DNA of 63,014 nt, filler included, from Reclinomonas americana ATCC 50394 (GCA_048213135.1; 5 parts of 2 records of this genome joined end to end with filler, not necessarily neighbours in it), one strand, 5' to 3'. Shown: positions 3,507 through 59,500, counted from the first letter of the whole stretch. The notes: generated from the sequence alone by a model not told the origin. Program-made: numbers and translations.

Positions 3507-6500
3507 TTACCAGGCGGTTCCAGATCCCGCACTCACTCTCCCTGAGAATTCCCCGGCATCCGTCGTCAGCCCCGCTCCGCATGTCAGTACAGCGTCGTCC
3601 GCACCTCCGACCGTTGCTACTGCATCGGGCACCGTTCTCCGCGCTGGTGCCTCACACAGGCGCTTGAGTTCATCGTGTACGTACGATGCCGACACACGTG
3701 TTGCTTGCGGCCTCTGTATCGTATACGTACACACAAAATAAGAATGCCGGCTTGTCCCCCCTCCCATGGCGTAGCACGCAACCCAGCACTGCCGAATGAG
3801 ATTCCGAATGTCCGGCGAAACGGTCGCTCGCACTTCGTCATCGTCAAGATTGCCAGGCAAGACACCTTCATGCATGCAGCGCATGATGACCGGCAGAGAC
3901 ACACCACAAAATGGTTCCCTGCGTGTGGCGATGAGCCAGAGCAGAGAACCGAGTCCATACACATCGGCTCTCTCGTCGTACTGTGAACGGCGCAGCAATT
4001 GTGAGCGAATCGCACACTGCAAGAGATGCCAACCGCACGCGCACCTCGGGACCCAACATGGCTTCCGGTGCAGCGTACGCCGCCGTGCCGTGGTTCGATT
4101 GCATTTTCCCGAGCGTACCGTGGATTCTGGCCTCCCCAAAATCGCACACCTTTGCAACAAGTCGGTCCTCGCTGATGAGAATATCTGTCGACAGATGAAA
4201 GGTCATGATCAGTTGGTGGTCCATATTCGCTCACCTGTTCCACTCTCAGCTTTTACGTGCGTGGTGTGGTCTGCCTCACTCACTGTTAGCCAATTTCTCA
4301 ACGACGTAACTCTGTGGCTTGAGATCGCGATGTACCACTCGACGACAGTGCACATGAATCACTGCCGACGCCACTTGTACAAGCAACTTGAGCAACTGTT
4401 GCGTCGGCACACGGCCATCCTTTACCAGGTCGTGCAGCGTCTCTGCATTTCCCTGCGCTTTCTCTTGACCGATGTATTCGAGGACGAGACCAAGTCCGCT
4501 CGGGTCGTCATTGCACACGGCCATGAGTTTCACAATGTGCGGGTGACTGTGTGCAGAAGCAATAAGTGCCAACAATCACATAGCAACACAGCGGAGTGCT
4601 CACAAAGAAACACGCAACTCGAGCTGCATCAGCAACGAGTGTTCGTTCTCGAAGCTCTTGCAAACGCGGTCCCAGTCATCTGCGTTCCTAACCAAGTACC
4701 GCTTGTACGCCACGGTCTGCAATACACCGCCAAGACAGAGAGTGGCTCGAAAGACAGCATTTTGTCCTGTACATGTGATGAGATGAGCACCATGGTATCA
4801 ACTCGTTGTACAGCCGAGAGCAGTCTCACTGGCGCACACCGATGGCAAGCTGCCTCGAGGTCGCCAAGTCAGAGAAAGGCACAACGGGGGCGCGGATTTT
4901 GAATCTGGCCACCTTCTCCTTCAGCATCTCAGCCGTCACGTTGATGCGACTCACGGCTGTGCGGAGAAATGAGAAACGCAGAACCAGACTTACCAGTACA
5001 TGTGCGTGAGTGCTGCGATCGCAACTGTCGTATGATTGAAAGAGAAGACGGATGCATTCGTGTCCGTCGGGGAATAGAGTGTGGAGCGAATCGCGGACCA
5101 AACGCATGACGCTGACATACTCGGCGTCTTCGAGGGCAGAGAGCCGAGCAAGATGAGATACGCGGTGACGCACATCTCTCAAGTTCTTCACGGCTCGGAT
5201 CTGCACGGTAGAGCACTCAGTGTAATGTACACCATAACGTAGAGAGTGCCAACAAGCAAACCTTTGCCGGGTTGGCGAGGAGATGCACAGCACATCGATC
5301 TTGATTCGCGCCGGGGTCGAAACGAACAAGGCTATCCTCCAAATCTTCATCTCGACAATCGGCGGCGCACACAAAAGTGGTGTACAGCAGCAGAGTACTG
5401 AGAAGCGAGACATCCATGCCCGTCGTCACACCAGTCCTCTTGAATGCGCGAACTGCTTCATAGTTGGAAGGATACAGGTTGGCTGAGCGCATGGAAAAAT
5501 TGCCATGCTTGTCACGAGTCATTCGACAATATCTACCAGACGTGGTGATGGATGAGATGCGATGACCAGGAGGCAGCACATAGAAGACAGCGAATCCGCT
5601 CTTTTTCCAAACCTCGGCGGTGGAACCGGGCGGCAGAGTTGCTCAATGTCGAATTCACCAGGGAAGTAACCAGCAATGAGTTGTTCCAGCAGAGAGCCAA
5701 GTGCTAACGGAATGACCTCGTGCACGACTTCGGTGAGCATCAGGATCGGACGGCGGTCACTGTGCATTTGGCCAAAGAGTGAGGCGAGTCACTAAAGCAC
5801 TAACGGCGACCATGGGTTAGAAGAAACCTGAGAAAGTCCATATGGAAGAGTGCGCGCAGCTGATCTTTCGCCTCATCAGCCTTGCGTCGCAATTCCTCGC
5901 ACTCAGCAGCGGCTGCAACAAGCTGCGCACGGAGGGCACTGCATTCCGCGGTGGGGACGTCAGCAGCGAAACCGGCTGCGGCAGATGCCAATTCGAGTCT
6001 GAGCTGATTACGATCGGCGACTAGCGCGTCGGCAGCACGCTGTGCGGCGGCCAAGTCTTCTGAAAGCTGGTGGCGATCTGCTGCGATTGCCTTCACTGTA
6101 GCTCGAGCAGCAGCAAGATCTGCAGTAAGTTGCTGGCGCTCCGCTGCCATGGTCATGACGGCGGCTTGAGCAGCAGCGAGGTTCTCAGCGAGTCGGTCGC
6201 GCTCCGCCGTGACAGTACTGATAATGCTGGTTGACTTGTCGACTGCAGCAGGCGAACATCGAAAGCAAATGAGGCACGCATGTGCAAGCGAGAGCAAAAA
6301 TTAGACTTAACACGACAGGAAGAGACAAGCGCGCACTGAATGCGATGAGCGAGAAGGGAAGCATACGGACCTTGCGCGATCGCAAGGCGGAGATCTTGAC
6401 GCAGCTGAGCAACAAGTTGGTCTCTTTCCTCCAGTTGCCGGTTGACGGCGAACCGAAAGTCGTCCTTCTCGCGCAGAGCTGCAGTAAGCTGAGAGGCGAA

Positions 6501-23290: not shown

Positions 23291-26200
23291 TCACGCTGGC
23301 ATGTGACGCAACGTGTCGCGCAAGGTCTGCGAGATCTCGGTGAAGCTCGGTCGCTCACGCGGCCGCTCGGCCCAGCAGTGGGTGATGAGCGAGCGCAGCG
23401 ACGCCGGTTCGCCCTGTTCGACGACGTGACGTGAGCGAGCAAGAAGGCGAAGTGTGACTGGGTATGTACGCACCGGAAACACTCGAGGTCGCTGCCGCTG
23501 TGTGGTAATCGCTCTGCGCACGGGATATATATCGAGTCAGTGATGTGCGGTATTGTGAGGGAGTCAACGAGGCTTCGTGATATGTGCGTGCGCAACAGAA
23601 TCATGGTAAACACTGGCATGCCACTGAACGGCGCCTCGCCCGTGAGCATCTCATTCTGCGCATATTTTGTGAGAATCATCGGCACACAGTGGTAACACAC
23701 GTGTGCGTGTACGACGCAACAAGAACAATGCCAAACGAGTACACGTCGCTGGCTTGCGAGTGATCGTCGTGACCACGCAGCACTTCAGGGCCAGTGTGCT
23801 GTGTGGAACGGGGAGTGAGTTGACAACTCATACGCAGATCTTATCTTGCGCCGTACCGAAATCGCTCGCATGCGTGACGCCGTCGCCGTCTTGATGTCGG
23901 GCCGTCGCACGCCAAAGTCCTGAGGGTGAAGAAGAACAAGTCACGTGCTGTGGCAGAACGACAATGCACAAATTTGACGCACAAACAGCCGGAGAGCAGG
24001 AACGTCGTGTGCATCGCGACAGGGCGTCGCCAGCAGCACATTCTCCAGATCCAGTCCACGATACAAGACGCCGCTGACCTCGTGCATGTAGGCCATCTGT
24101 ACGGCGCATTCCTTTTCAGTACCAAGCGATGTAAACGACTGCCTCCTCAAGTGCAAACCGTCGAAGCCAGCTGTAATGCGATTTGCACTTTTGTGCGCAG
24201 TGGTGGTCGCCGCTCACGCAGCCAGTCGGCCAGCACCGGACCCGTGGCCATCTCCATGATCATCCACACGCGATCCTGGTCGGTGTCGGTGTCCACGCCG
24301 AGCAGACGAATGACACCTGGCGCGGCAACCAGTTGGTCACAAAATCTTCGTACTCCGGGCAGGATGATGACGACAAACCAGGGTGCTGCGACTTGCCGAG
24401 CGCAGTGCACTCGATCAGCGCTGCCGAGCGCTTCTGCATGTCACCCTCGGGAATGATAAACTCCTTGACTGCAACGGGATAGCCAAACAGCTCGCCGCGA
24501 TGAATGACTCCCGATGTGCCGCGACCGAGCAGCGGCACACTCGGATCCATCTCCACCAGCGCCACCGGCACCTTGGTCCAACTGAACTCGACTTCCACCT
24601 CTTCTGCGCGCATGGCGGGGCCACGAGGAGATGCCGCCTCATCCGGCTGTTTTGGATGTTAGTCGCCACAGGCCTCATCCAAGTTCACCGACAGCTGCGC
24701 AAACCTTTTCTGTCGCATTCGACTCATTCCACTGCCGTCCGTCTTCCTCATCAACAGTCAGTGTGTTCCACTTGGCACGGTTCAGCAGATCCTTCAAGTG
24801 CTCCACGACGGCCGAGAACGAGGGACGTGTTCGTCGGTCGTGGTCCAGGCACAGACTGAGAAGGTGACGCACTTCCTTGGGTATGGACTGCGCGCGCAAG
24901 ATGAGAAGTATGCAAACAGAAGTGAGGACTGGCAAAGTGCGCCACTCCACCTCGGGAATCGTTGGTTTCAGGCCGAGAGCAGCGACTGTGCAAGTTAGGC
25001 GAGGGCTAGAATGAATCTCTCTTAAAAGACCAATCGTGTGCACAATGGCGCTCACCTCGATACATGATTGAGTATGGTTCACCGTCGAATGCTTGCTGCC
25101 CAGACAAGACCTCCAGCATCACCAAGCCGAATGAATCTGCACCTCAAGTGGTGAGGCCACAGCGGTGGGGAAATACAGAGCTCCCAACGGAACGCAACAA
25201 ACATCAGCCTCCGATCCGTGACCCGTGCATCTGTGAGACGCTGAATGAGAAGGATGCAAAGATCACACAAGCAGGGCGGTTTCAGCGCACTTGATGATCT
25301 CCGGTGCCATGTACTGCGGAAGACAGTAATGTGAGCCTCGCAAGTACAAGAAGAGTGATGCTAAGCAGGTGCTGCTTACCATCATTGTTCCCGGTGCGTG
25401 TTTGGTACGCATCGTCTGCGGTCGCCCACCAGAGGCCACCTATCGTATCGAGTGTCAGCAGCAGCAACGCCTCTCCACAATGCCTGTCAGCGACGCACTG
25501 ATTGCACTGCAGAGACGCCAAAGTCCATCACATACACATGCGGTGCACCGATATCGGCAGCAGCAATGGCTGTGCTCGCACCCAGTGGCGACGACAAGAC
25601 AGCCGTCGGATCGTCACACAGCACATTCAAAAGTTTCAGCTGTTGTGTTATCGTGAGTGTGCAGTCAACAAGCAGCAGAATAGAGATCGATACGCAACAT
25701 CGCGATGCACAATGTGCATGGAATGCAACTCTGTCATCTGTGTTTCATCTCGGTAAGTGAGAATGCTGACACGATGTCCTTTTGAAACTCTCGCGAGAGG
25801 TACGCAACTGCCGACGCCACCTGGAGGCAAATGTCGAGACGCACCACCAGTGGCACTGCGTCGCGATAGTATGTGGCGCGCTCGCGCAGCTGTGCACTCT
25901 GCGGCAGACCGGGTGTGACTGGCGCCGCTGCCGACCGTCGCCGAATCCAGTCACTGAGATTGCCGCCGACCACCAGCGGAGTGACAATCAAGCACTTGAT
26001 CTGCGGTTGCAATCAGCAAAGAGTGGAGAAGAGGGGGAAAAGACGTAGTGGCTTGCAGCCAACCTGCTTCTGTTGCACTTCCTTGTGGGCGCCGAGCAGC
26101 GGCAGGATGTTGGCATGTCCGCTCGCCTGTGCGTGCAACCTGTGGTGCGTGTCAAGACAAGCACAAGGGGAGAGAGAGAGAGGGCCAGATAGGAGTTCAT

Positions 26201-29259: not shown

Positions 29260-29878
29260 AACTTCGAGTTCCTCGACAGCCGAGTGGCCGACCTGGCCAT
29301 CGACGTGCGCGTCGCCGTCATCACCGTGTCGCACTGCCCACACCTCATCCGCCTATCGATTGTGCCTCCACGTGTCGGCGTGCCGGACGCCCTGTGCTCT
29401 CTCCGCATTCTGCACTGCCCGCAGTTGCACCAGGTGCGTGCGTCTCGACTTGTCGTGTCGTGGTGTGCGTGACACTGACTTTGTGTGCTTAACAGATTGT
29501 GATTCAGGAACCAGTGGCGTGCCCGAGTTCACTGGTGCTCATGGAGTTGCCGTGCCTGGAAGACCTCAGTGTGGCCTCTTTCGCGTCGCCCACCAGTCCC
29601 ATATCTCTCACACCGCCCTCGCGTGCCATTCTGCCTCTCCGCACGCTCAACATACGAACCGGTGTGCCGCATGCGGATGTTGCGTGCCTTGCGGCAGAGA
29701 GTGTTTTTCATTGCCTTCTCATTTTTGCTCGATGCAGGCCATTATCCACGCGGTGGCGTCGCTCAGCTTTGCTCGCATCCAGCGTGTAGACGATCGCCAC
29801 ATCAATTCGGCGGTTGGCACGTCGTCGGCCAGCGTCGTGGTGGCAATGCCGCCAGACTCGAGACTTCGAACATCATGA
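29260..29878 (+). CDS. Cys-type LRR exons, probably the 3' end of the F-box/LRR gene on an inverted contig
   Basis: ITVSHCPHLIRLSI, LRILHCPQLHQ, LMELPCLEDL. The preceding intron repeat (CTCCCCCATGCTCTTCCC) matches that at 31413-31500 read on the minus strand. Confidence 0.6.
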
Positions 29879-34500: not shown

Positions 34501-37500
34501 NNNNNNNNNNNNNNNNNNNNNNNNNNNNNNNNNNNNNNNNNNNNNNNNNNNNNNAAGGGAAGGAGGAAGGGGAAATGGAATGGGGAGACGGAAGGGGGAG
34601 ACGGAAAGGGGAGACGGAAGGGGAAGAGGGAAGGGGGAGACGGAAGGGGGAGACGGAAGGGGGAGACGGAAGGGGGAGACGGAAGGGGGGACGGAAGGGG
34701 AAGGAGGAAAGGGGGACAGGGAGAAGGGGAAGGAAGCGGGGAAAGGGGGCAGTGGAAGGCGCGAAGGGGAAGGGGAAGGGGAGACGGAAGGGGGAGACGG
34801 AAGGGAAAATAGAATGGGAAGATGGTAGAGGGGAAGAAGAGGTGGAAAGGGAGAAGAACAGGATTCGTGATACACAATGCAATCAGTTGCCCAACTCACC
34901 GGCAGTCGCGTGTGCGCAACAGCGCCAGTTTGTCGCATCCCTCGCACGACAGCTCTTCCACACCCGCGCAGCTGTTGATCTCCAACTGTTCCAGCACGTC
35001 TGTTCGACGGCGCGTGTGGGAAAACACAAGAAGGCGACTGCCACGACCAGGAATGTGCAGACAAACCGCAGCGAAACAAGATGCGTGCCACTTGCTGGAA
35101 CCCGTGAAAACCAATGTGTGTGACCGACGGTGATAATAGCGTAAGGTCGCGCAGCAGCGAGTGTGGACACACGAGTTCGATCTCGCGCAGTTGCAAGCAC
35201 TGCGGTGACACGCAAATAGAAGTGAGGGGCCGACTGGCTACTTTCGCACAACCGTCGCAGCGTACCAGTTCAAATATCAACTGCGCCATTGGCGGCGTGA
35301 AGGTGGGCCAGTTGCGAATGTGCAAGTTGGTCAGCAGCTGACACTCTTCCTGCACCGGTGGATGATGGGGAACGCCATCATTCAGCATGCAAGGTACAGA
35401 GAGCAAGCCTTGCGCTCGACTCACCAGAAACCGATGCAAACAGTCAAACGACACCTCGCCAAAGTCGGCGCGCAACACGCGCAGCTCACGACAGGCCATG
35501 AGACCCACCAGTTCGACGTCGCCAATCGCCACATTTCCCATGCCATCCAGTCGCACCGAGGTGAGTTTCTGCGAGGTCACTTGTCAGTGATCCACCTCAC
35601 CAACACAGCGAGAGAGTTGAGGGGAGGAGACGCACCGGGCACGAGGAGGCCAGGATGTGCACTGCGCGCTGCGTCAGTCCGCGACAGAACTCAATGTTCA
35701 GTTCCTGTGGGCGAGTGTCGTCAGCGATCACCGAGGAAATCACCGTCACGGGGTCAAGAGTAACCTCGATGGACCACAGACTCGACAGGAACTCCTGCAA
35801 GCCCTGATCGGTGATGCGCTGCTGGCCAGAGAGTGTGGCCGAGCGCAGGTGTGTCAGACGGCCCAGTTCACGCAGCGACGCGTCGTTGATCAAGAACGAG
35901 TTGGCCGCCGAGTTGCTGGGAGTGGCGGTGGCAGTGGCGGCGGCGGCTGCAGCAGCAGCGGCTTGGACAGCACCGTCGTCGACACCGGTGGTCTCGGAGG
36001 GGTGGGAGGCCGCTTGCAGCAGCAGCTTCTCCACTGATCCGCAGAGCTCCGTGAAGAGCCGGAACTGAGAAGGGGAAGGGGGGAAGGGAGAAGGGGGAAG
36101 GGGGAAAGGGGATAAGGGGAAGGGATGGGGGAGAGAAGGGGGAAGGCAAGGGGGAAGACAAGGAAGAAGACACAATGGGGAAGATGAAAAGGGGCAGGGC
36201 GGAAGGAAGGAATACAAGTGAAGAGAGAACGGGAGTGAGTGGGAGACGAGCGATGGCGAGGAAGAAAACAAGAGAAGACGGACACACAAAGAACAACGAG
36301 AAGAATTGAAGACCGGAGAACAATACATGCATGAGGAATAAGAAATGGGGAGGAGGAGAGGGAAGTGGTAGCGCAAGGTGAAGGACAACTAAGAAGAGAA
36401 GAACAAGAAAACAAGAGGAGACGAAGAAGAACAAGGGAGGACGAGGGGAGGAAGAGAAGAAGGACCGACAGCTCCCTTTCTTTGTCATGCACGTACATTC
36501 TGTGGAGTCAAATCCCGACAATCACGCGGGAACACCACACTGCGCAGTCGCTCCCGTTCATGCAACGCACGCAGCAGCTGTGAACAAACAAAGATCGTGA
36601 GAGATGCACAGAGAGAAAATGAAAGAGAGAACAACATGCATCGCGATCGACTTGTCTCTTGTGAAAGGGAAAGAGACACTCACAGAGACAGAGACTGAGA
36701 ATCAGGATGAAGAAAGGCACAGAGCCTCATGCATCGCGCTCAACTTGTTAGAGAGAACGACGGCATACACAGACAGAGACAGAGAATGAGAAAGAGAGGC
36801 ACAGAGAGCTTCATGTATCACTCAACTTGTCTTACTTGTTAAGAACGACGGGCTCTCTTTCTCCCTCTCACACTCACAAACAGAGAATGAGAAAGAGAAA
36901 GAGGAGAAGGAAAGAGAGCTTCATGCATCGCGCTCAACTTGTCTCTCTCATGAGAGAAGGAGACACCCGCACACACAACAGACAGACAGGGCAAAGAATG
37001 CGGAAGAAGAGAAAGAGGAAGAGAAGGATAGCACAATGCATCGAGCTCAACTTGTCTCTTGTAATAGAGAAGGAGACACCCGCACACTTTCTCTCTCTTT
37101 CTCCCAGGCAGACAGAGAATGAGAATGAGAATGAAAGAGGAAGAGGAAGAGAAAGAGAAGGAAACAGTCATCTCTCTTGTGTGCGTTTGAGAGAAAGAGG
37201 CTCTCTCTCCCTCTCCCTCTCCCTCCTCTCTCCCTCTCTTCTCTCTCCCCTCTCCCCTCCCTCTCCCTCTCTCTCTCTCACACACACACATGCGCGCAAC
37301 AGCAAGAATGTTCCTCATGGAAGGCGGCAGATAACCTGTCTCCATCAGCAACTGCAGATTGAGAGCGGCTGGTGCGCGTCGAGCCACATAGTGTAAGCGA
37401 CGCGACACGAGACAGAGCGAGAGGAATCGCTCGGAGAGTGGGAGGAACTGTATGTGAGAGAGAGTGAGTGAGGCAGAGAGTGTGTGTGCATATGGGGTGT

Positions 37501-37555
37501 TCATCGCAACCTGCAGTACATGCGAGAGGACCTCTGTGGGCAGAGTGCCGAGCAT
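31545..37555 (-). CDS. F-box/LRR-repeat protein (FBXL-like)
   Basis: N-terminal F-box MLGTLPTEVLSHVLQFLPLSERFLSLCLVSRRLH, then many LxxLxLxxCxx(I/L)TD repeats (QRITDQGL, FCRGLT, LILDGCEGL, LRKCDGITE). Confidence 0.85.
36590..37100. repeat. Intronic tandem repeat resembling the adjacent exon start
   Basis: About five copies of (TT)CATGCATCGCGCTCAACTTGT. Confidence 0.8.
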
Positions 37556-37704: not shown

Positions 37705-38259
37705 TTAGGTGCGGATGATGACCGACTGTAGGTGGAGGTGAGCAAGAGAATGAGCTACAAGTGACTTGGAAAACGAACACACACCTTGATCTCCGTGTAC
37801 AGCCTGCAGTAATGCAGCACAAAAGAGTGTGGAGTGAGTGACAAGTTAAACACGTAGAGAAAGACAAAAGGTGGAAACGAAACTGTTGCATCGGAACCGC
37901 AGCGAGAAGCACAGACGAATCGGTGTGAGCAACAACAGTGTGATGCGTGTCAGCAGCACGCAAAACGACGCACCTCGAGAGCGTACTCGCCGTTATCGCG
38001 GCCGACACCCGACTCCTTGAAGCCGCCGAACGGCATGTCGCTCAGGAACTCGTTGTAGCTGTGCGGAATAATGAGGGGAAGAGAGGGGGAAGAGACGGAA
38101 AAGAGATAGACGCACCAGTTGACCCACACCGTGCCGGCGCGGACCTCGTCGATGAAGCGGAAGGCCTTGCCAATGTCTGTGATGGGTGATAAGGGAAGGA
38201 AAGGGAAAGGGGAAGGAGAAATGACGGGGAAGGGAAAAGGAACGATTCAAAGTGTGTAT

Positions 38260-38294
<35 letters not shown>

Positions 38295-40941
38295 TGGAAC
38301 AGAGAGTCAGAAAGAGACAATGCGTGGTGGGAGTGAGAGGTTGAGCGACAGACAGAGTCGTGCGCGCGCGTGTGTGAGAGAGAGAGAGAGAGGCGGGGAA
38401 AGGGTGGAACACAGAGTCAGAAAGAGACGATGCGTGGTGGGAGTGAGAGCAGAGCCAGGATTGAAGGGTGGACCAGAGAGACAAGGAGGGGGGCAGAACA
38501 GAGAGAGAAAGAGAGAGATTGAGTGGAACGAAAAACAGGGAGAGACAGAAAGCACAAAGGGCACAAACGCGAAGAGAAAAGAGCGAGCGCAAAAGACAGA
38601 AATCGTGGACAGGAGAGTTCTCCCGTGTGCGAGAAGCGCACGAAGAATGACGTGATAATCAACAATTGTCGACACTGACCCTTGGTGAGCACGGCAGCAG
38701 CCAGGCCTGCGACGAATCAACAGTGAGTGAATCATCCCACTGCAACAGAAGAGAGATTAATGGGGGACGAACCAAAGTTGCCGCTGTTGGCGCGGTGAAT
38801 GACCTGCGTAGCCACAATAAAGAGTGAGCGCACTGCAATACGAGGGGGGAGCACATGGGAAGACAGGATCGCACCTCGTCAACGTCCGTGAAGCGCATGA
38901 CGCACACGACCGGGCTGTACAGGGAAGAGCGGGTATGAGAAGCAGAGGAGGGCAAAAAAGGACACGGCCAGACGCACCCGAAGATCTCCTCCTTGGCAAT
39001 GGTCATGTCGTCGCTCACCTCGGTAAAGATGGTCGGCTGTCACCCGAAAGAGCTCAATGAGTGGAGGGAAAGGAGGGTTGAGGGGGTATAGTGAAGGAAA
39101 GAGGAAAGAGGAAGGGAAGTGTGTGAAGGGAAGCGAGGAGAGGACACAGTAAAACGCGCACTTTCACTCGCTCGCATTCTCACTCACAAACTGATTCACG
39201 CAGGCACATACACACACAATGCACACACGTCGCTCACATGCACTATAAAAAGGGAAGGGCGAACAGAGAGAGAGAGAGAGAACAGAGACGGAGAGGGCAA
39301 GTGAGACTGAGGAAGGGAGGGAGAATGGAACGGTAGGGATAATGAGCGAGATTGAGACAGGGAAAATGAGAGGCTAGTGCACAAGACACTCACCCACTCA
39401 CAGAAACACATATTCTTCCGTATCAGTAACTTCGCTCATGTCGCTCATACATACACTTGCAAACTATCACACTCACTCCGTATCACTCTTGTCTCTCATT
39501 CACGTCGCTCACTCGTGCACCCAGGCATTTGCAACCTAACACACACCCTCTCCCTCTCTATTCTCTCTCTCTCACGCACCTCGACAAAGTAGCCACGATC
39601 GCCGACACGCTTGCCACCGCACGCCAGGGTGGCACCCTCGGCCTTGCCCTTCTCTGCGACGTGGGGAGGTGGTAAGTGGTCGACGCTCGCACTTTTCTGG
39701 AAAGTCGACAACTCACCGATGTAGCCCATGACGCGGTCAAACTGCTCGTCGCTGACCTGCGGGCCCTGACTGCACGGACGGATGAGTCGCCACGACTCCA
39801 CACAGCACTCCGCGCATGCACAGACGCAACTCGGTCTCATGGTGGGTGGGGTCGCCGACCTTGCGGGTCTTCGCGAGGGCAACACTGCGTGCCACAAACT
39901 CGTCGTAGATGGCGTCCTCCACGTAGACTCGTGACGAGGCCGTGCACACCTGACCGGCGTTGAAGAAGATGCCCTGGTGGGCAGTCTCCACAGCGTGGTC
40001 GAGGTCCGCGTCCTTGAAGATGACCAGGGGGCTGAGGAAAGGGGAGGGGAAAAGACAAGAGTGACCACCAAGGAAAATAGAGAAGAAAACGGCAGCAAAG
40101 ACAGCAAGGGGCAAAAGACACAGATTCAACGAGACAAGAGGAAAAAATGTAGTTGGGGAAGCAACACACCTCTTGCCGCCGAGCTCCAGGCTGCAACGTT
40201 TCAGGCTGGCCTGCGCAAGAAGAGTGTCAAGGGTCTGTAGAAAGCGACACAAGCACAGGGTGATTGAATACCTTGGCTATGCGGTGGAAGTGATGGAAGA
40301 GGAGGAAGAGGAGACTGGTGAGTGAAATCGCTTGGGCATTTCGGGCGTGTGGAAAACAAACCGCAAGCTGTGCAGCGAGAGAATGAAATGAGTGAAATCG
40401 CCGAGTGAAAACAACGAAAGAGCATGGAAACGCACCTTGCTGAATGATCTTGCCGACCTCCAGCGAGCCAGTGAACGTGACTGGCAGACACATGAAGTCA
40501 GTCGCGTGATTTGTCATCGAATCACACCAAGGCGTGTACGCAACCCTTGTCAACGCCCGGGTGGGCAGTGATGGCGCCGCCAGCAGTCGGGCCGTAGCCT
40601 GCATTGGTATATTTAGCAGGCGGGATAATTACAGAGCACGACTGAGACGCGGCTCACCGGGGACGACGTTGAAGACTCCCGGCGGGAAGCCAGCCTCGCG
40701 CACAAGCTCAGCCATGCGCAACGCCGTCAAGGGGGTCTGCTCCGCAGGCCTGTGGGAAAGAGGTGAGCGACGGGAGATGACAAGTCAGCATGCGGTGTTG
40801 ACGCACTTCAGCACTGCGAAGATGAGAAGTCAGTCAGACAATTACAAAGGAGACAGAGAGGTAACATAGCACGAACCAATGGTGCAGCCCATGCAGAGAG
40901 CGGGGGCCATCTTCCACGTGGCCATCAGCAGCGGGAAGTTC
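37705..40941 (-). CDS. Aldehyde dehydrogenase, ALDH1/2 family, 5' partial
   Basis: [39 protein letters not shown] (catalytic Cys), [31 protein letters not shown]. Confidence 0.95.
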
Positions 40942-43590: not shown

Positions 43591-46069
43591 CTTCTCCCAG
43601 CACCGTCTACCTGCGTGCGGGTAACACCAAGACCACTCAGGAGGCCATCACCTTCACCGGCATCTCCCCGGCTGTGACCGCCTCTTCGGTGTTCACCATC
43701 CGCAGCGCCGCCGACTGCAGCGGTGCCGACTCGCCCACCACCACTCTCGGTGCCGTCACTCTGACGGCCGGTGCCTCGCAGGCCCTGACTATCATCTCCA
43801 CTGCCGAAACCGCTGCAGCGACTCGCTACCTGTGCCACGATCCCGATGGCGCCGGTGCTGCCGCCAACCAGTCGATTTCCAAGATCCAGATCTGTTGCGT
43901 CAACTCACGCTCTCTTTTCACGATGCCTCTCTGACTGACACCCACCACCACAGTCTCCACGTCCTCGGCCTCGCCGTCGTCGCTGCCGTCGGGCTCTGCC
44001 TCGCTTACGCTGACGGTCCTTGGCTCCAACCTGGCGGCTCCATCGTCGGCCAACTTCTACCTCACTGCCACCGATCCGGGAGCAGCCACCAACGCTTGCA
44101 GTGCCACTGCCGTGACGGGAACTTCTGTGACCTTTGCTCGCGCCTCGGCCACCACCGTTGTGTTCACGGTGGCCACGGCGACCACCTTCGCGGGGTCCAG
44201 TGCGCAGGCTGTGACCACACCGACCGCCACCCAGTTCTGCACTGCTCCGGCTGCCGCAACCTACTACCTCTGCGGCTCGTTGCGTTTCCGTTTGTGTGTG
44301 TGCCACAAGACTGCATCATTCGGCTCTTCTCAACACTGCTTCTTTGCCTGCGCAGGTTCCAGAACTCCGGCACCAACAACCTCATCAGTGCTGTGGGCAT
44401 TGTCGATCCGTCGGCCATGCAGATCGCCTTCGCCAACCCGACCGTGCTCAACTACAACGCCGCCAACACCATCACCATCTCTGACGCGGCCAAGTCGCTG
44501 AACAGCTGCACTCGCTTCAAGATCATTCGCCCCGACCAGACTTGCGCCGACGATGTCAGTTTCGTACGCGCACACACCCTCAAGCCGTTGCCCGGCTGTG
44601 TGCGCCGCTGTGAAACTCATTCATCTTTCTCTGTCTCTGCACAGCCGCCTCGTCAGCCACGGCCAACACGAACAACGCCACTGGCGCCCTGGGCACCGTC
44701 AACACCTACACGCCCGGCAGCTTTGACGCTTCGAGCTGCTTCGACTCGTCCACTGGCTGCAACTTCTTCAAGATCTCGTTCACCCCGCAGCAGCCGGGCA
44801 CTTTCCGCTTGTGCGCCAGCCGCAACAATTCGGCATTTGCAGCCATTCCGGGCGAGCAGTTTGTCTCCGGCATGCAGCAGGCGCAGGGTTCCCCCGCAGC
44901 CATTGCCACAGTTGAGACAAACACGTTTGGAGAAAATGGGTTGAGTCCTTCTCACCAGTGTTGCTTCGACTATTGATTGCAGTTCGGCACTCCGGGTACG
45001 GTGCGCACCGCCGTCGCCTCCGCCACCTTCCCGGTCACCTTCCCCGCGATTCCGCGCATCCTCGTTGGCTTCACGGCATACGCTGGCAGCACGGCGGTGG
45101 ACACTGGCGTGTCGTGCGGTACCCCCTCGGTGACTGCGACTGGCTTCAGCACCACCTGCACCGCCCTCCGCGCTGCCACTGCCACCAGTCTCCAGCTTGG
45201 TGAGAGCAATCCCCCACGCCTGTGTCGTCTCTCGTTGTGCCTCACTCCTGCTGTGATGCCAGCGTACTTTGCGTTCTACGCGCACTCCTCCAAGGCATTC
45301 TCGTTCGATGGTCAGCGCATGCTCAGCAACGGCGCCTCCTGGAACAGTGTCGCCACTGCCAAGTCGTCATCGACTGTTGCGTATACTCGGCACCACGGAT
45401 GAGTGAGCGGTGTGGCGCGATGAGTGCCAACACGTGCGTGTCATGTGCAGAACACCAGCGTGTCGAACATTTACGCGTTCGGCACTGCGCCTTCGGTCGC
45501 TGTTGCGTTGATGGGTGCTGCCACTCGTCGCTTCGGAACCACCAATCTAGACTTCCGCAACGACGTTTTCTACGGCTCGATCGCTTCCGTGTCGTCGATG
45601 GCCTTCACCCTGCGCGGTGTGGTGTCTGGCAACGCGCGTGTGGACTCGTTCGGCACACGCTACATTGCTGGCCCGGCGGTCGCGGACTCGAAGAACACGA
45701 GCGGCTTTGTTGTGCTGACTGGCGGTGAGTATCATGCTCCCTTTTGTATTTGGTCACCCACGTACTCACATTCCGCTGCGTGTTATTGTTGTTGTTGCAG
45801 AGGGCGAGGCCACGAGTGCTTCCGCGGTGAACCTTACTTTCGCCAACAGCCGCCGCCTGTTGCAGACCAACTTCCGCGCTCAGCAGTTCATCCGCGGCCT
45901 GGACAACACCGGTGGCGCTGGAGGCACTGCCAATGTTTCCGTGAGCGCCATTGCCGGCTACGACACCAACGGCAGCGCCACCGACTGGGAGGGTGTGACG
46001 ATCACCATTGCCAACGTTGGCAACAAGGTGCAAGTGTCGTACATTGCACTCGGCACCCCGGCTCCGTAA
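43591..46069 (+). CDS. Ser/Thr/Ala-rich, probably secreted protein with about three C-terminal H-type-lectin-like repeats (5' end in gap)
   Basis: Beta-rich Cys-paired N-terminal repeats (YLC, FRLC), then VTFPAIPRILVGF...SVTATGFS, FGTAPSVAVAL...VSSMAFTL...RYIA and FIRGLD...VSYIALG, resembling the H-type lectin FxxxPxVxV...TxxGF...xYIA pattern. Stop at 46069. Confidence 0.6.
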
Positions 46070-50282: not shown

Positions 50283-53200
50283 ATGGCGCGAGCCTTCAAC
50301 GCCAGCGCTCCCTTATCTGGTGACACCGCCATGATGGGAGCAGATGGTACGCTGGTGACCGCCGTCAAGACCAACGCTGCCACACCCATTTGCACGACGG
50401 CCGCCGATTGCAACAATGGCGGCACGTGTGTTGGTGGTCTGTGCTCATGCTTCCCCGGCCTCGGCGGCACACGCTGCGAGTGCCGCCCAGTCGAGACATG
50501 CAAGTTTCGTTGGCACTGCCAGCAGTTGTCTCGTGTTTTCGATCCCCCTTCTTTTGTTCTCACGCCCGCTCCCTCCACACAGTGGTTACGGCGAGTGCGA
50601 CGACACCGGCAAGTGCATCTGCCACACCGGTCGCACCGGCGACAATTGCCAGTGCACCAACGGCATGGTGGGACCGAACTGTGATCAGCAGCCTCGTTGC
50701 GTCTACTTGCAGAGTGTGCGCCTGCCTCTACCTGTTTGCTCAAGCAAAAGTATCTCTTCATTTTTCACGTGGCACAGCTCCGCAACCTCCTTCACAGCTC
50801 ATCTTCACGCGACCGAACAGCGCGCTGCCGCTGCCGCTGCCAGTCGCGCCCGGCGTGACCGTGGCCTCGCTTGACGCTCGTGACCCAAACCCTACCGACA
50901 CGTTTACCTTTTCATTGGTCGCCGGTGACGGAGATCGTGACAATGGGTTGTTCAAGATCAACACGCGCAATCTGGACTTGCCCGCCACGGGCACTGGCTT
51001 GCCGAATCTCAGTGTTAAGAACCCACCGCTGCAGATCCGCTTGCGCGTCACCGATCAGACAGGCTTGTTCCTGGAAAAGGCAGTGACGATTCCCGTCAAC
51101 AACTCGCCCTCCGACCTCAAGGTGTGTGTGGCCGCCCTCCTTCTTCTTCTTCTTCTTCCTCCTCCTCCAGATCTTGTTCACTCACGGTTCTCTCCCTCAT
51201 CCCCCTTGCTCTCTTTCATGTGGATCAGGCCGACACCACGTTCTACCGCAGTCCGGCGGTGAGCGGGGCGTGGGTGGCCAACATTGCCTCCACGGACGAC
51301 GCCGGAGATGTGAGTGTGTATAGCATCACCTCACAGACGCCTCTGCGGGCGTTCAAGGTCTCCAACTCCACGCTGGTGATTGACACGCCACCCACGGGTG
51401 ACGTGACCATCCGCCTTCGTGTGACGGACCCCGGCAACAGCATGTACCTGGAGCGCGTGTTCACCTTTTTCGAGGCCGTGCCACCCAGCAACATCACCCT
51501 CAGCAACAATCGGTACCCCTACCCTTCCACGGCTGGCGACCTCATTGGCTCACTGACCACGGTCGACACTCGCCCCGGCAACCACACGTTCTCGATCTTG
51601 GCGTGCACGCCGGCCAATGCCGTTGTACTTGCCGGCACACAGAACGACCAGCTGCGCGTTGGAGCCGCACCCATTTCCGGAACGGTTACGGTGCGCGTAC
51701 GCACCCTCAACACGTTCAGTCAGCTGTGGCTCGACATGGATCTGGCGCTGCTGGAGACCAACGTGGCGCCCACTGGCATGTCACTGGCCATTCTCTCCGA
51801 CCCGTACCCGCTGCCGCTGCCGGTGGCGAATGGCACACTGATTGGCACGCTGGCGACAACGGATCCGAACATGGTCGACAAGTTCACATACTCGCTGGTG
51901 GCAGGCACCGGCGACACCGACAACGCCTTCTTCAACATCACCGGCAACGGCCTGTACACGAAGAACACGTCGACCATTCCCTCCAATTTCTCGCGCTCGC
52001 TACAGGNNNNNNNNNNNNNNNNNNNNNNNNNNNNNNNNNNNNNNNNNNNNNNNNNNNNNNNNNNNNNNNNNNNNNNNNNNNNNNNNNNNNNNNNNNNNNN
52101 NNNNNNNNNNNNNNNNNNNNNNNNNNNNNNNNNNNNNNNNNNNNNNNNNNNNNNNNNNNNNNNNNNNNNNNNNNNNNNNNNNNNNNNNNNNNNNNNNNNN
52201 NNNNNNNNNNNNNNNNNNNNNNNNNNNNNNNNNNNNNNNNNNNNNNNNNNNNNNNNNNNNNNNNNNNNNNNNNNNNNNNNNNNNNNNNNNNNNNNNNNNN
52301 NNNNNNNNNNNTGCGCCTGCAGACCACCGACTCGGGCGGTCTGACGTTTGCGCAACGCTTCTTCCTGCCAAGTTTCGTCCACATCTCTCTCTCTCTATCT
52401 CTTTCCACTGCTCCCACTCTCTGCTCACTCATTCCTACTTGTGCATCCACCAGCCAACATGGCGCCGCAAGACATTGTGATCACGTCCAACCGCTACGCA
52501 CTGCCACCAACAGTCGGCGCCACTATTGGCACGCTGTCGGCAGTCGACGCGGCTGGTGACACACACAAGTTTGAGCTGCTGGCCATGCAGCCGTCGGGAG
52601 CCTTTTCACTGAACGTGGACAAGCTGCTGGTGAACTCGGCCACCATCTCTGGCAACAACCTCAACGTCACTGTGCGAGCCACCGACAAGATCAATGGTCG
52701 TTTTGTGGAGAAGACCCTGACGATTGCGGAAGGTGCGTGTGTTTGTTGGCCTGCAACCCTCTAGCGTCTTTGCACCATTATCGCTTACCACACTTTACCC
52801 CCTTCATAGCGTCCATGCCGCCCACCAACATTACGCTGCGTTTCGACTATCTCGGCAAGCTGGCCCTGCCGGTTGTTGGTAACACCGTGATTGGTGCGCT
52901 GACGGCCACGGACCCCAACACGGCGGACACGGTAACATTTTCGATGACTACCGGCGCCAACGCCACCGACAGCGACAACGCCTACTTTTACATCTCTGGC
53001 ACTGCGACACTGCGTGTCGTGCCGGCCGGCATCCCGAATCAGCAGCGCACGCCCATGATTGCAATGGTGCGCGCCACAGATTCGAGTGGTCTGTTCGTCG
53101 ACGTGCGCCTCGAAGTGCCGGTGAACAACGCCCCGAGCAACATCGCCGTCGATTACCCGTACTACACCGTGCCGCCGGTTGCCACCATGATTGTCGGCAA

Positions 53201-56079
53201 CGTGGTGGTGGCCGACGACGTTGGCGACACGGCGCTGCTGTTCATCAACTCGCAGTCGCCGGCTGGCATTTTCACGCTGAGCGGCTCGCAGCTGGTGATG
53301 GCCTCGGTGCCGACACCGACCGCCGGTGTTTACCCGACCATCACCCTCTCGCTGCGTGCCACCGACTCGGTGACCAGTCGGTTCATCGACAAGAGTTTTG
53401 TTGTGCAGCCGGATCTGCCAACCACCGTCAAGGTCGACCCCGGCGTGCCGGTGCCGCCGTACCGAGTGGTGCCGACGCTCTCCTCGGCCCCGCTGCCACT
53501 GGCTCTGCCGCTCTCTGGCAGCACCGTGGTGGCCACTCTGCAGGCGCTGGACCTCAATGTGGGCGACACATTCAACTACACGCTGGTTGCCGGTACCGGC
53601 GACACCGACAATGCCAACTTTGCGCTGGCCTCCGCCACTGGCGTGCTGTCAACCAAGGCGGGCGTCTCAGTGGCTGGCGGACGCAGCACGCCGCTGCGCA
53701 TTCGGGTCCGCGCCACTGACCGCTCTGGCCAGTCGCTGGACACGGCTCTGCAGCTGCCCATCAACAACCCGCCGAGCGACGTTGTGTTGTCGACGACTTC
53801 CATTGCCTCGGCCGCGCTGTCGGGTGCGGTGGCTGCCAACATCTCTGCCATTGACGATGTCGGCGACACGCACACCTTCTCCATCCGCTCACAACAGCCG
53901 ATCGATGCCTTCTTCTTGTCCGGCAATCAGCTGATGATTGGCACGCGATACAGCGGAAACCTGTTGGTGACCCTGCGCGCCGCTGACACCAAGAACGGCG
54001 TGTTCCTCGACAAGGCCTTCACCATCACCTCGGCCGGTGGTGTCGCGCAGCCAAGTCCAGCTGATGCCTACTACTCGTCCACCTGCTCGGCTGGTTTCAA
54101 GGGCGACTGCACCGTGCGCTGCGTGGCTACCGACACTTGCGTTGCGTAAAAATCCTCTTTCATTCTCCTTCTTCTTTGCTCGTGTGGACTGCTTGCTGAC
54201 ATGCCGCCTTTTCTTCTTTTTTCTTTTTCGCAGACTGGTGGCTGCACCACCAAGGCCACAGTCACCCAGCAGGTGGCGCAAGATGGCAACGGGCGGCGGC
54301 GATGGACTCTGTCGCGCTGCTCACGCCAGATGCGTATCCGCGGCGGCACCAGTGTGGTCACGCAGTCCGACATGCAGTTCCTGCGCTCGATTGGCGGCAA
54401 CACGGTCTACCTCTACGGATTGGACCAGTTGAACTCACCGTTCCTCGACAACTTGTACCAGCTCGGCATGAACGCCATTGTTGGCTTCAAGCTCCAGGCG
54501 GAAAAGGCCACTGGTCGTTTCGACCCCTTCACTTGTTGCGTCTGTTTCAAATTTTTTGCACCCCGTTTCGGTTACGCTGACATTGTGTTGATCGTCTACG
54601 TAGATGGCGCGTCCAGCGATGCCGAGGCGGCGCAAGTTGCCTTCTTGGTCAGCGTGGTGAATCTCTACAAGGACCACCCCGCGCTGCTGGCGTGGAGCAT
54701 TGGAGACAATTTCGCTTCGACATTTGCCGCTGGCGACCGACTGCGCATTTACCAGTCGATCAACACGATTGCGACGGCCATCAAGGTCGCCGACAGCAAC
54801 CACCCAGTTATCATGCCGATTCTGGATTCGGAGTCGATTGCTAGCGGTGCGGCTGCCGCCATCTCTGCCGTCGACATGCTGCTCGTGTCGACATCGTCGT
54901 CGGCCACCAAGCTGCCGAGCACATTTNNNNNNNNNNNNNNNNNNNNNNNNNNNNNNNNNNNNNNNNNNNNNNNNNNNNNNNNNNNNNNNNNNNNNNNNNN
55001 NNNNNNNNNNNNNNNNNNNNNNNNNNNNNNNNNNNNNNNNNNNNNNNNNNNNNNNNNNNNNNNNNNNNNNNNNNNNNNNNNNNNNNNNNNNNNNNNNNNN
55101 NNNNNNNNNNNNNNNNNNNNNNNNNNNNNNNNNNNNNNNNNNNNNNNNNNNNNNNNNNNNNNNNNNNNNNNNNNNNNNNNNNNNNNNNNNNNNNNNNNNN
55201 NNNNNNNNNNNNNNNNNNNNNNNNNNNNNNNNNNNNNNNNNNNNNNNNNNNNNNNNNNNNNNNNNNNNNNNNNNNNNNNNNNNNNNNNNNNNNNNNNNNN
55301 NNNNNNNNNNNNNNNNNNNNNNNNNNNNNNNNNNNNNNNNNNNNNNNNNNNNNNNNNNNNNNNNNNNNNNNNNNNNNNNNGACGCTCTCAACTCCACTCT
55401 GCCGTACATACTAGCGTACGGAGTGCCGAGCCCGGCCGACTCCACCAAGACGGCGTGGGGCGCCCCGATCGAGATGACCACAGCCAGCGCGGCTGACTGG
55501 CAGCTCGCTGTCCAGTCGGCAGCGCGCAGCGACGGCCGTGTCATTGGCTCCATGGTCGACTTCAGCTTCCGCATGTCGTCGGCCACTGTAGCCGCCGGCA
55601 GCACCCTGACATGGAACAGTCTGTTTGTGCCTCCGCAGTTGGCGAGTGGCATGCCACGCACCGCCGCTCTCGACCAGCTGCGTTCGCAGTGGTTGGGCGA
55701 GATTGGCGGTGCGGCCGACGCCTCGTACAAGCCAGCACCACAGCTGCCGACCACCAACGCTCTCACCACCAGCATCAGCCTGTCGTCGGTGAAGCGCGGT
55801 GTGGCGGCCAGCGCGGACGTGTACGTCAGCTCGGTGACCACTGGCTGCGCGCCACTCAAGTTCGCCCTTCAGATCCGCACGGACGGCTCACTCACCACCG
55901 ACGCCCTGGCTATTGTCGGCGACGAGTTTGCCGTGGCGCCCGATCTCAACAACAGTTTGCACTACCGTGTGACGTTCCAAGTACCCGTGGTCAACGGCCC
56001 GTACAGGCTGTTTGCTGTGGTTACAGATCAGTGCGGAGGCGCAGCAACGGCGAACACGCCGTTCCAAGTCACAAGCTAG
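50283..56079 (+). CDS. Large extracellular protein: EGF-like repeats, bacterial-type cadherin-like repeats, GH-A (GH2/GH158-like) TIM barrel lacking catalytic Glu, C-terminal beta domain
   Basis: CNNGGTC..CSC..GLGGTRC EGF motifs. Repeated DPN..D.FTYSLVAGTGDTDN..F.I and IRVRATD..G cadherin motifs at ~50780-54030. GGNTVYLYG, YKDHPALLAWSIGDN, KTAWGAPIE, GPYRLFAVVTD..GGAATANTPF. Stop at 56079. Confidence 0.8.
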
Positions 56080-56408: not shown

Positions 56409-56420
56409 TTAATTAATTAA
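56409..56420. other. Artificial scaffold linker
   Basis: TTAATTAATTAA flanked by Ns. Confidence 0.97.
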
Positions 56421-56560
56421 NNNNNNNNNNNNNNNNNNNNNNNNNNNNNNNNNNNNNNNNNNNNAATACAGGGGAGCTCTGAAATGCACACGGGAGCAGA
56501 TGAGGATACCAATGGAGAGCAATGTGACTTGCAAAGGGAAAAAACAACAACGCACCGTCA

Positions 56561-59500
56561 TCATCTAACGACATTTTGCGGTGTGTTGAAACCCGACGGT
56601 GCACGGAAGCCACCCTCGATGCCGGCGAACAGATCGTCGCTGTCGTTCTCACCCTCCTCAAAATCCTGGTTCGTTGATGATAAGGACGAGATAGACAGAC
56701 AGAGGGAGAGAGAGAAGCAGCATTGGGTTCAAGTCAGCACGCAACAGTACCCAGGAATTCCAGCTGTGGTGCGCGTGGTGGAGGCGCCTGCACCACTGCC
56801 ACCGGACTGCTCTCAAAGTCTTGTGTCGCTTGTTCCACTGGCGCTGCAACTGGTGACGGTCTTTGTGGTGGCGGTGGTGGTGGTGCGACAGCGTTGACAG
56901 GTGTCGCGGGACCAAGAGGTACGGGGGGACGGAAGCCGCCTTGCATATTGGCAAACAGATCACCGTCGTCGCCGTCGCCATCGTGCTCGTCACCGCCCTG
57001 CATACACACACACCATCATCATGAGAACCAGTGACTGGGAATTGCAATAGCGAGGCTGCTGCACACGAAACATCGTCGTCGTACTCAAACGATGGTCCCT
57101 GCAGGGCGCCCACTTCAATGGGCGGCGGTGGGGCAGCGGCGGAACTCGCCATGTGTGGATTGTCATGCTGCACACAACACACAAAGTTAGATAATGGGCG
57201 AAAGACACACAGTGGTCATGGAGGACGCACCGTGACGCTTTCCATGTGCAATCGCGCCTCGCCCATTGGTGCCGCCGAGAGCGCAGCTTGTAACTGCCCA
57301 CCACCGACCTCATGAGGAACGAGCAAAATGAGGAACAAATGCATGCAAGTGACGTACTCTTGGCGGAGCGCGGTTGGCCGATGGAGGGCTGGCGGGCGGA
57401 ATCGGCTGTCGGCCATGGTGTTGCATCTGTACCAAGAGATTTAGTACGTGGAAAGCGTGCGACGACACACGACAGTGGCCGCAACTTTCTCTTCATATGC
57501 CGCGTCACCGGCACCATATTCCGAGTCGGCAAGCGCCGGCTGTGCATCAGCGAGTGTGAATTGCTGTCGACGGGAACACCAGTGCCATCTCATTCACACA
57601 ACTTGCACGGAGGATGGACTCGTCAACTGCGACGGCGACATGCGTCGAGCCCCGTTGACGTAGCCTTGCTCGTTTGCCTCAATGTCCTGTGTGCAGCGAC
57701 AGCATGTGAGACCGCTGGGCACCAGAAGGAGGAGGAGGGTTTCTCTTTGCACACACACAGACCTTTCCATCGGCGGCCACGGGCTACGCGAGAATGCAAC
57801 GACAAGAGCGGAGTGAGCACACGATCAACTTACAAAGACCACGTGTTGGAGTAAAACGTACTGGATTCTGCACAGGGGAGCCCGGGAGCACAACGCCACC
57901 GGCCGCCTGCATGTTTAGCGCCGGCTGGAGTTGCGGAGGACCACGACCGAGGACGACCGACGGAACACGGTGAGCCATCTGGTCGCCCTCCGCCATTGGC
58001 TGCATTGCAATGGCCACTGCCGCGGCGGCACTTCCGCTATTGTTGTTGTTGTTGTCGGCCAGCGCAATCGGGCCGCCAGGCGTCACTCCGCTGCCGGAGG
58101 CGTTGTTCAGCTGGCCGGCACCACCACCGCTGCCGCCGTACTGCTCAGCGTACGGATCACTGGCCATGCGCACAACCTCAGGGGCGGCGGGCGTGGTTCG
58201 GTTGCGGAACAGCAGAAGACACAGCTCGAGAGGCTGCACGCACAGTNNNNNNNNNNNNNNNNNNNNGGTCAAGCTGCGCGTCAACTGCTACTACGAGTCG
58301 TACTCGGGGCAGCTGGCGAACAACTACTTTTGTGGACTGGCCACGTGGGCCGATCGCGTCTTTTACGCGCTGCTCGGCATGATCTGGCTCAACTTTTCGC
58401 AAAAGATCTTCGAGGTTGGCAAGTCGCGATCGAGTCTCGTCCGCAAGCTCAACATTGCTCTCATTGCCTCGTTGCTGGTACGTGCGTGCACTCGCCGTTG
58501 AGAAAGAGCGGAAGTGCCTTGTGTGCTCACTGTGGCCTTCTGTAAACGAAAAAGGTGCTGCTGACGGTTGACCTCGGACTGGAGTTGTACATGCCTGTCA
58601 CGAATCCTCCGAACCGGCCAACGTACTACGTGCTGCTGTCGGTGAGAGGGCGCTCTGTGTGTGTGCCATGATCTTTCGCGCATCACAATGGCTGAATCAC
58701 TGCAGATCGGCACCGTCACCATTGTATTCTTCCTGGGTGCGCTGACCGTGGTCTTGATTGCTGTCGCCTGCCACTGCAGCACGGTGCGCAAGATGCCACT
58801 GCGTACGCGATGGACCATGATCAAGGTGCGGTGATTTGTTTCTCTCCGACTCCTCTGACCATTGTCGCCACTGACGCGGTGACGCAGATTGCCAGCCTCT
58901 TGCTGATTTACGTGGCCGGTGCAATTGTTCGACTGTACTTTACCACCCGCCAAGTGCTCTCCAATTACGAGTCCCCAGAGGCGTGGTACGAAGGTGCATC
59001 ACGTCTGCCCGTGCGCCTGCCCTCTGCCTCCGTTGTCCTCACTCTCCGCATCGGCACAGCCACACTCGGCATCATTCTCTGCCAGTGGCTAGTTGCGTGT
59101 GTGCAGTCTCCGTCACATGGTGAACAATAGTAACCCTTTTNNNNNNNNNNNNNNNNNNNNNNNNNNNNNNNNNNNNNNNNNNNNNNNNNNNNNNNNNNNN
59201 NNNNNNNNNNNNNNNNNNNNNNNNNNNNNNNNNNNNNNNNNNNNNNNNNNNNNNNNNNNNNNNNNNNNNNNNNNNNNNNNNNNNNNNNNNNNNNNNNNNN
59301 NNNNNNNNNNNNNNNNNNNNNNNNNNNNNNNNNNNNNNNNNNNNNNNNNNNNNNNNNNNNNNNNNNNNNNNNNNNNNNNNNNNNNNNNNNNNNNNNNNNN
59401 NNNNNNNNNNNNNNNNNNNNNNNNNNNNNNNNNNNNNNNNNNNNNNNNNNNNNNNNNNNNNNNNNNNNNNNNNNNNNNNNNNNNNNNNNNNNNNNNNNNN

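Follow-up and report, generated by a model that had tools for sequence, protein, structure and literature searches.

One-base-displaced GTTGCG-type 5′ splice sites form a frequent donor class in a 63-kb window of Reclinomonas americana

Shifted-register 5′ splice sites were reportedly described in humans by Roca and Krainer in 2009. In the portion of a later human survey on which we draw, both shifted and bulged pairing registers of U1 small nuclear RNA (snRNA) are proven for rare cases, and noncanonical registers, counting every validated kind, account for 1.5% of 201,541 sites (PMC4856993). Here we analyze a 63,014-nucleotide (nt) stretch of nuclear DNA from Reclinomonas americana ATCC 50394 (GCA_048213135.1), hereafter the window, in which a reading of the sequence alone (the original prediction) had noticed many 5′ splice sites (donors) that read GTTGCG or a related GTT-initial hexamer. 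We find that these GTTGCG-type donors exist, are frequent in the window and form a distinct class that is displaced as a whole by one base. As in human shifted-register sites, the introns are GT-AG, the motif fits best when slid by one base, with +1G in the place of −1G, and the cut falls at the GU. The human examples are a handful of atypical sites, whereas in the window the class comprises between 14 of 74 and 28 of 113 called introns, follows a tight consensus of its own and is preferred where the exon ends in a base other than G.

Other described systems share some of these features. Ordinary degenerate U2-type donors show −1G/+5G compensation, and there too the exon end and intron positions are interdependent, a weak exon side going with a strong intron side; they compensate through +5G in the same register, whereas Reclinomonas does so through a second register with +6G. 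Introner-like repeated introns, which occur in some algae and fungi, are likewise many, short and endowed with an unusual conserved start, but the Reclinomonas copies are dissimilar beyond +7. The human bulge +2/+3 register (PMC4856993, Table 3) also has an extra U right after the GU; in the sections of that source used here it keeps the exon pairing, whereas the Reclinomonas exon consensus is displaced and −1G is nearly absent. Supplements aside, our literature searches returned no report that deals with nuclear splice signals in Reclinomonas or describes, for any organism, displaced donors as a major class; a tunicate paper, in the part consulted, goes no further than suggesting that a register may be shifted (PMC13326754), and partial Reclinomonas assemblies are stated to exist (PMC8134430). 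The kind of pairing is already known; within the reach of these searches, its routine use as a tightly defined class is not.

The window consists of five scaffolds joined end to end by linkers of the form N44-TTAATTAATTAA-N44 (19656-19755, 41277-41376, 46687-46786 and 56365-56464), so that gene order across these positions means nothing; the TTAATTAATTAA blocks carry six-frame stops, and the window holds 7079 N spread over 26 runs. All donor counts come from this single 63-kb sample, and most introns are predictions of a purpose-written Viterbi gene finder that weighs codon usage together with an intron Markov chain, scores for acceptor and branch site, and a prior on length. In a donor-agnostic run, any GT was allowed as donor, intron positions 1–8 were left unscored and an AG acceptor was required; 103 introns were called, 74 of them short (≤150 nt). 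In a model-assisted run, a two-component donor mixture derived from these 74 donors was fed back into the gene finder, yielding 113 introns (20 with GTTGCG, 28 in the shifted class) whose counts are therefore not independent of the donor model. A curated set of 31 introns was drawn from an aldehyde dehydrogenase (ALDH) gene (18) and two kinase genes, K1 (4) and K2 (9). Throughout, donors with +3T and +6G but no +5G are termed shifted, and donors with +5G unshifted. Applied to the reversed sequence, the donor-agnostic model gave 12 short introns and 0 GTTGCG donors.

All 29 hexamers named in the original prediction (23 GTTGCG, 3 GTTTCG, 1 GTTACG and 2 GTTGAG) are present at the positions and on the strands assigned to them, and 13 were recovered as donors of short introns in the donor-agnostic run and 19 in the model-assisted run. 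GTTGCG occurs 65 times on both strands, compared to 42.8 ± 6.7 times in 100 dinucleotide shuffles (largest 56), and is the commonest donor hexamer of the short donor-agnostic introns (11/74; GTGCGT, 8/74), among which 1.23 would be expected under independent columns (5000 column shuffles, maximum 7). Within gene spans, 11 of the 29 sense-strand GTTGCG strings were called as donors, compared to 74 of 2746 for any GT (2.7%; binomial P = 1e-10). The shifted class as a whole accounts for 14 of the 74 donors versus 5.4 ± 1.8 in column shuffles, the largest of which reached 14; on the comparison singled out in the original prediction, +3T/+6G donors are thus commoner than a degenerate consensus predicts. 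Among the curated introns the share of the class is 9/31 (14/74 and 28/113 in the two runs), and its members are found on all five joined scaffolds, in agreement with the claim that several carry it; the further claim of a major intron class holds within the window, which is also its scope. Left unaided, a two-component mixture on the 74 donors splits G/GTgCGT from n/GTTGCGt (slashes in motifs mark the splice junction) with a log-likelihood gain of 53 nats, although by the Bayesian information criterion, computed on this small and noisy sample (n = 74), two components (2332) are not preferred over one (2292). A further 25 of the 74 donors fall in neither class.

The displacement includes the exon side. 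In the donor-agnostic set, −1G precedes 21/35 unshifted but 1/14 shifted donors (P = 0.001, Fisher test), and among the curated introns 18/21 and 2/9, respectively (P = 0.0017; 30 of the 31 introns, one being in neither class), which upholds the claim that shifted donors follow exon ends other than G. The unshifted consensus (n = 35) reads C/G, A and G up to the junction and then GT, G at +3 (15), C at +4 (17), G at +5 and T at +6 (24), with T at +7 in 12. The shifted consensus (n = 14) reads, from −2, C (6) and A (7), followed by GTT, G at +4 (12), C at +5 (13), G, and T at +7 (10), its −1A and −2C corresponding to the usual −2A and −3C. The usual CAG/GTGCGT accordingly becomes CA/GTTGCGT, the base after the recognised G being T, not G. 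At the non-defining positions −1, +4, +7 and +8, moving the unshifted profile over by one base improves its fit to the 14 shifted donors by 28.6 nats, as the original description of a local consensus plus one extra T would have it. The shifted donors are also tighter than unshifted ones (G, P = 0.01; C, P = 0.004), and T supplies the extra base in 14 of the 23 donors that have +6G but no +5G.

In other respects the shifted introns are ordinary, with a median length of 71.5 versus 68 nt, the same base composition and a CAG acceptor in 22/22. A branch-like motif obtained by iterative refinement, aCTSAY, lies mostly 12–35 nt from the 3′ end, shifted introns included (range 12–51 nt across 32 training introns). 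With this motif present, and with frame or transcript restored on splicing, the shifted donors belong to major (U2-type) GT-AG introns. U12-type introns, characterized by the donor (A/G)TATCCTT and a TCCTTAAC-like branch site, were rejected on motif, the donors here being GTTGCG, GTTTCG, GTTACG or GTTGAG and the branch motif being that of the other introns. The shifted introns share no excess 6-mers (Jaccard index 0.018 between class members, 0.019 among the other introns and 0.016 across the two sets) and so are not a repeat family; introner-like repeats were rejected on this comparison and on the absence of similarity past +7. Across the window, acceptors are nearly always (A/G)CAG, the sense strand of introns is rich in pyrimidines (T 0.32–0.34, C 0.29–0.30, A 0.15–0.16), and runs of (CT)n, (GA)n and (CA)n abound in both introns and spacers.

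Direct support for use of these donors comes from the curated genes, in which a transcript-derived protein and the continuity of Pfam profiles and kinase motifs bear out the earlier claim that the hexamers begin real GT-AG introns. The 18 ALDH introns were read by hand and fixed by coordinate, and the spliced model aligns with two ALDH proteins, over 326 residues in one case and 325 in the other, each time with a single gap. A search with an ALDH exon retrieved a protein derived from expressed sequence tags (EST) of Reclinomonas americana (P0002; EukProt EP00694) that matches the spliced model at 100% identity over 119 residues with 0 gaps and spans 6 junctions. This match places the DNA in Reclinomonas americana or a near-identical organism. 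Two GTTGCG junctions (40544 and 39830) rest on this one protein, the second on its frame-shifted tail, which is an other-frame reading over the 39830 junction. The same protein confirms micro-exons of 6 nt (40367-40362) and 5 nt (40276-40272; ..QQACAKASL..), and a third micro-exon measures 7 nt (40813-40807). Intron density in this gene is extreme, at 18 introns in 327 codons (37705-40941, minus), whereas the related jakobid Andalucia godoyi is reported to be intron-poor (PMC7050145). At ALDH intron 17 (37973-37803, minus), the frame and the match to homologues (..ALE/LYTEIK..) need one boundary moved by one base, giving GT..GG or GG..AG, the cause being an indel in the assembly or else a non-canonical boundary.

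In K1, splicing at 4618, 4310 and 3782 yields a continuous series of kinase motifs (LDHPHIVKL, HRDLKPQNIL, DFG, APE and QCW-RP), which here and in K2 carry the names that we take to apply from established knowledge of the family. The Pkinase profile match 57–127 ends at the last residue before donor 4310, the match 129–169 begins with the residue that opens the next exon, and profile position 128 is the codon split by the intron; likewise, the exon after donor 4618 begins at profile position 57. In Pfam searches on single short exons, 5/9 exons gave no match, and profile continuity is thus confined to the surroundings of 4310, those of 4044 and the beginning of the exon that follows 4618. Four further GTTGCG donors lie in K2 (Table 1). 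One K2 intron (26207-26135, minus) starts with GTTGC, as does the exon that follows it, a repetition that by eye is absent in the shifted introns at 43894, 44279 and 45376.

We assign a probability of roughly 0.55 to the reading that these are ordinary GT-AG introns in which the whole 5′ motif sits one base further in and U1 pairs one register over. The U1 5′ end would pair alike with both donor forms, its register moved by one in the shifted class, with intron +1G opposite U1 C9 in place of exon −1G; T as the extra base is what a shifted register would need opposite U1 A7. The cut would be placed later, by the U6/U5 steps, at the sole available GU, one base upstream. We infer that U1 is the reader and that its register is shifted instead of bulged. 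The displaced exon side and the loss of −1G argue for a shift of the whole register, whereas a bulged U would leave −1G paired. Of the shifted or bulged pairing invoked in the original prediction, the displaced motif stands, and the choice between the two is refined in favour of the shift.

Several results weigh against this register shift or the frequencies behind it. With a human-type U1 end, the mean duplex energy is −1.6 kcal/mol for shifted donors, −2.2 for 400 exonic decoy GT sites and −5.6 for unshifted donors, and +1G pairs with C9 in just 6/22 minimum-energy duplexes, a figure that holds for human-type U1, from which the organism's own may differ; these energies were computed for 22 shifted donors and ignore small nuclear ribonucleoprotein (snRNP) proteins and pseudouridine. 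After non-G exon ends, GTTGCG outnumbers GTGCG by 10 to 3. The gene finder also misses or misplaces introns: its donor-agnostic run lacks 3 of the 18 curated ALDH introns, misplaces donor 38679 to 38673 and replaces the last two introns of that gene. Class frequency, moreover, rests on one 63-kb window. With energies no better than those of decoys, a standard U1 alone explains neither the constraint on G+4 (12/14) and C+5 (13/14) nor the 10:3 preference. This leaves three options: much of the recognition falls to snRNP proteins and later steps, the 5′ end of the Reclinomonas U1 is different, or a second U1 exists. No snRNA gene was found in the window by Rfam, in which no family reached its gathering score and E ≤ 5 gave only low-complexity sub-threshold matches.

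The second and third of these options correspond to a changed or second U1 snRNA with a 5′ end complementary to GUUGCGU, under which the shifted donors would be fully paired and constitute a separate class. The standard U1 5′ end is ACUUACCUG; the change could be, for example, A for C at position 8 together with G and C where the two pseudouridines normally lie. We regard this as unlikely, even though it would accommodate the weak binding of shifted donors by a human-type end, the 10:3 ratio and the constraint at +4 and +5, positions outside the reach of standard U1. For a hypothetical end built to complement the shifted motif, the energies are −10.7, −5.9 and −4.3 kcal/mol for shifted donors, unshifted donors and decoys, and for one complementary to the unshifted motif −9.3, −6.8 and −4.9 in the same order, so that both ends would bind both classes well above decoys; these ends are constructs, not data, and the energies again leave out snRNP proteins and pseudouridine. 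Counting against a changed U1, C at +4 is also favoured in unshifted donors (17/35), GC-rich genomes with standard U1 favour C at +4 as well, and, to our knowledge, the U1 5′ end is nearly invariant among eukaryotes. Rather unlikely, too, is an arrangement of two U1-type readers, one for G/GUGCGU and the other a variant or lineage-altered form (A at position 8) fully complementary to GUUGCGU; if true, the shifted introns would be separately recognised and their exon ends freed from the −1G constraint.

In a bulged-U register, +1G would pair with C8 and +2U with A7, one U at +2/+3 would bulge out, and pairing would resume at +4. The extra T adjoins +2T, so the bulge may sit at either position; in humans the +2/+3 register is predicted at 68/201,541 sites in the part of the survey used here (PMC4856993), and a test oligonucleotide carrying −1G has a minimum-energy duplex in which +1G is paired to C8 and an internal loop remains. 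Such a register would keep the exon pairing, however, and −1G would be expected, in contrast to the 1/14 (versus 21/35) found and to the displaced exon consensus (−1A, −2C); with +1G paired to C8 in 1/22 minimum-energy duplexes, we consider the bulge improbable. Very improbable, and already largely refuted, is the absence of any special class, with GTTGCG made frequent by composition within a loose consensus of GT plus G at +5 or +6. Homology-supported donors with neither G (GTACCC at 22897 and GTCTCT at 23097) and the 25/74 donors in neither class would suit it, but it conflicts with the excess of GTTGCG over column shuffles and over the GT base rate, and with the strong linkage of +3T to G+4, C+5, G+6, T+7 and non-G at −1. 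That the class is a modelling artefact, the true sites being other nearby GTs such as the one five bases on within GTTGCGT, is scarcely credible: although 8/22 shifted short introns have another frame-keeping donor within 12 nt and the donor-agnostic run took the GT five bases on at 50696, nine shifted donors are fixed by EST or domain continuity (two by EST, seven by Pfam profile or kinase motifs), 11/22 lack any other frame-keeping GT..AG pair within 12 nt, and the +5 GT is usable in 1/22 only, with a poor acceptor.

The shifted class frees the exon from having to end in G. Were the pattern genome-wide, a free-living jakobid would use for at least a fifth of its introns a one-base-displaced donor motif that is a curiosity in humans, the link between U1 binding register and cleavage site would be loose enough for routine use, and the −1G constraint on coding sequence could be lifted. 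The class would offer a natural system for asking what fixes the cut site, and it makes a sharp prediction on the U1 5′ end of a deep eukaryotic branch. In the very intron-dense Reclinomonas genome, gene finders that rely on one donor matrix would put many introns in the wrong place.

Table 1. Curated genes and GTTGCG-type donors in the window; runs are those of the gene finder, and "no alternative" means no frame-keeping alternative within 12 nt.
Feature	Position	Strand	Exon end	Evidence
ALDH gene, 3′ two-thirds	37705..40941	-		18 introns, reference set
GTTGCG donor, ALDH intron 4	40539..40544	-	..AAGG	P0002 100% identical across ..GVDK/VTFTGS..
GTTGCG donor, ALDH intron 9	39825..39830	-	..CCGA	P0002 tail; homologues ungapped here
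Kinase domain K1, 4 introns, 3 shifted	3520..4716	-		Continuous kinase open reading frame; Pfam Pkinase on single exons
GTTGCG donor, K1	4613..4618	-	..TCGA	..LLMQLD/HPHIVKL..; model-assisted; no alternative
GTTACG donor, K1	4305..4310	-	..CAGA	HRDLKPQ/NIL; Pkinase profile continuity
GTTGCG donor, K1	3777..3782	-	..CTGG	To 3714: ..IRQCW/RPQATR.., subdomain XI; called in neither run
Kinase domain K2, 9 introns, 4 GTTGCG	25056..26299	-		Spliced VAVK..HRDLK..DFG..APE..DVYSFG continuous
GTTGCG donor, K2	26202..26207	-	..TGCA	Donor-agnostic; no alternative; continuous kinase open reading frame
GTTGCG donor, K2	25803..25808	-	..GGCA	..QVASA/MTELHSMHIVHRD; donor-agnostic
GTTGCG donor, K2	25693..25698	-	..CGAT	HIVHRD/LKLLNVL, catalytic loop; donor-agnostic
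GTTGCG donor, K2	25193..25198	-	..GTTT	..SEADV/YSFGLVMLEV..
GTTGCG donor	5020..5025	-		Model-assisted only; no alternative
GTTGCG donor	14164..14169	-		Donor-agnostic, intron 58 nt
GTTGCG claimed donor	23591..23596	-		String present; several acceptors score alike
GTTGCG donor	23715..23720	-		Local evaluation: 65-nt intron, DVYSFGIVL/NEMLTGEAPF, kinase subdomain IX
GTTGAG claimed donor	27435..27440	-		String present; compatible only with long introns whose acceptors are weak
GTTGCG donor, outside the original prediction	29679..29684	+		Donor-agnostic, intron 59 nt; no alternative
GTTGCG claimed donor	32322..32327	-		Called only with 498-nt intron; weak local evaluation
GTTGCG donor	33063..33068	-		Donor-agnostic, intron 65 nt
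GTTGCG claimed donor	37295..37300	-		Called only with 723-nt intron; weak local evaluation
GTTGCG donor, among the few after G	37505..37510	-	..GCAG	Donor-agnostic, intron 63 nt
GTTGCG donor	43894..43899	+		Best local solution 60-nt intron, score 20.2; first donor-agnostic pass
GTTGCG donor	44279..44284	+		Donor-agnostic; no alternative
GTTTCG donor	44559..44564	+		Donor-agnostic
GTTGAG donor	44911..44916	+		Donor-agnostic; no alternative
GTTGCG donor	45376..45381	+		Donor-agnostic; GT five bases on needs a poor acceptor
GTTTCG donor	50504..50509	+		Model-assisted; no alternative
GTTGCG donor, less sure	50696..50701	+		Model-assisted; donor-agnostic run took GT five bases on
GTTTCG donor	52372..52377	+		Donor-agnostic
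GTTGCG donor	54141..54146	+		Donor-agnostic, intron 93 nt; no alternative
GTTGCG probable donor	54535..54540	+		Local evaluation: 69-nt intron, score 12.9; no gene-finder call
GTTGCG weak donor, outside the original prediction	56740..56745	-		Union of the two runs; acceptor weak, score 1.0
GTTTCG donor, outside the original prediction	57066..57071	-		Union of the two runs
GTTGCG claimed donor	59092..59097	+		String present; N run from 59141 hides acceptor
GTTGCG donor, outside the original prediction	59826..59831	-		Union of the two runs, intron 71 nt; no alternative

For the H-lectin-domain gene at 43.4–46.4 kb, a search with the exon 43956-44276 against the 1.84-billion-member representative set returned no Reclinomonas transcript and one distant match (37% identity). 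In a histone-deacetylase-like gene on the plus strand, the GTACCC and GTCTCT donors at 22897 and 23097 both follow −1G and have no G at +5 or +6; they yield ..LILYQ/AGVDP.. and ..VVFTM/GGGYSE.., respectively, which fit the family by eye, and show that the intron side can be very loose when −1 is G. The window also contains neighbouring paralogues (5519-10210, minus; 13808-14908, minus; 15789-16195, plus), namely two tandem ankyrin-repeat/coiled-coil genes, one of them with a kinase domain, and two fragments that share ..GVGNYDV.., lie on opposite strands and flank an N run.

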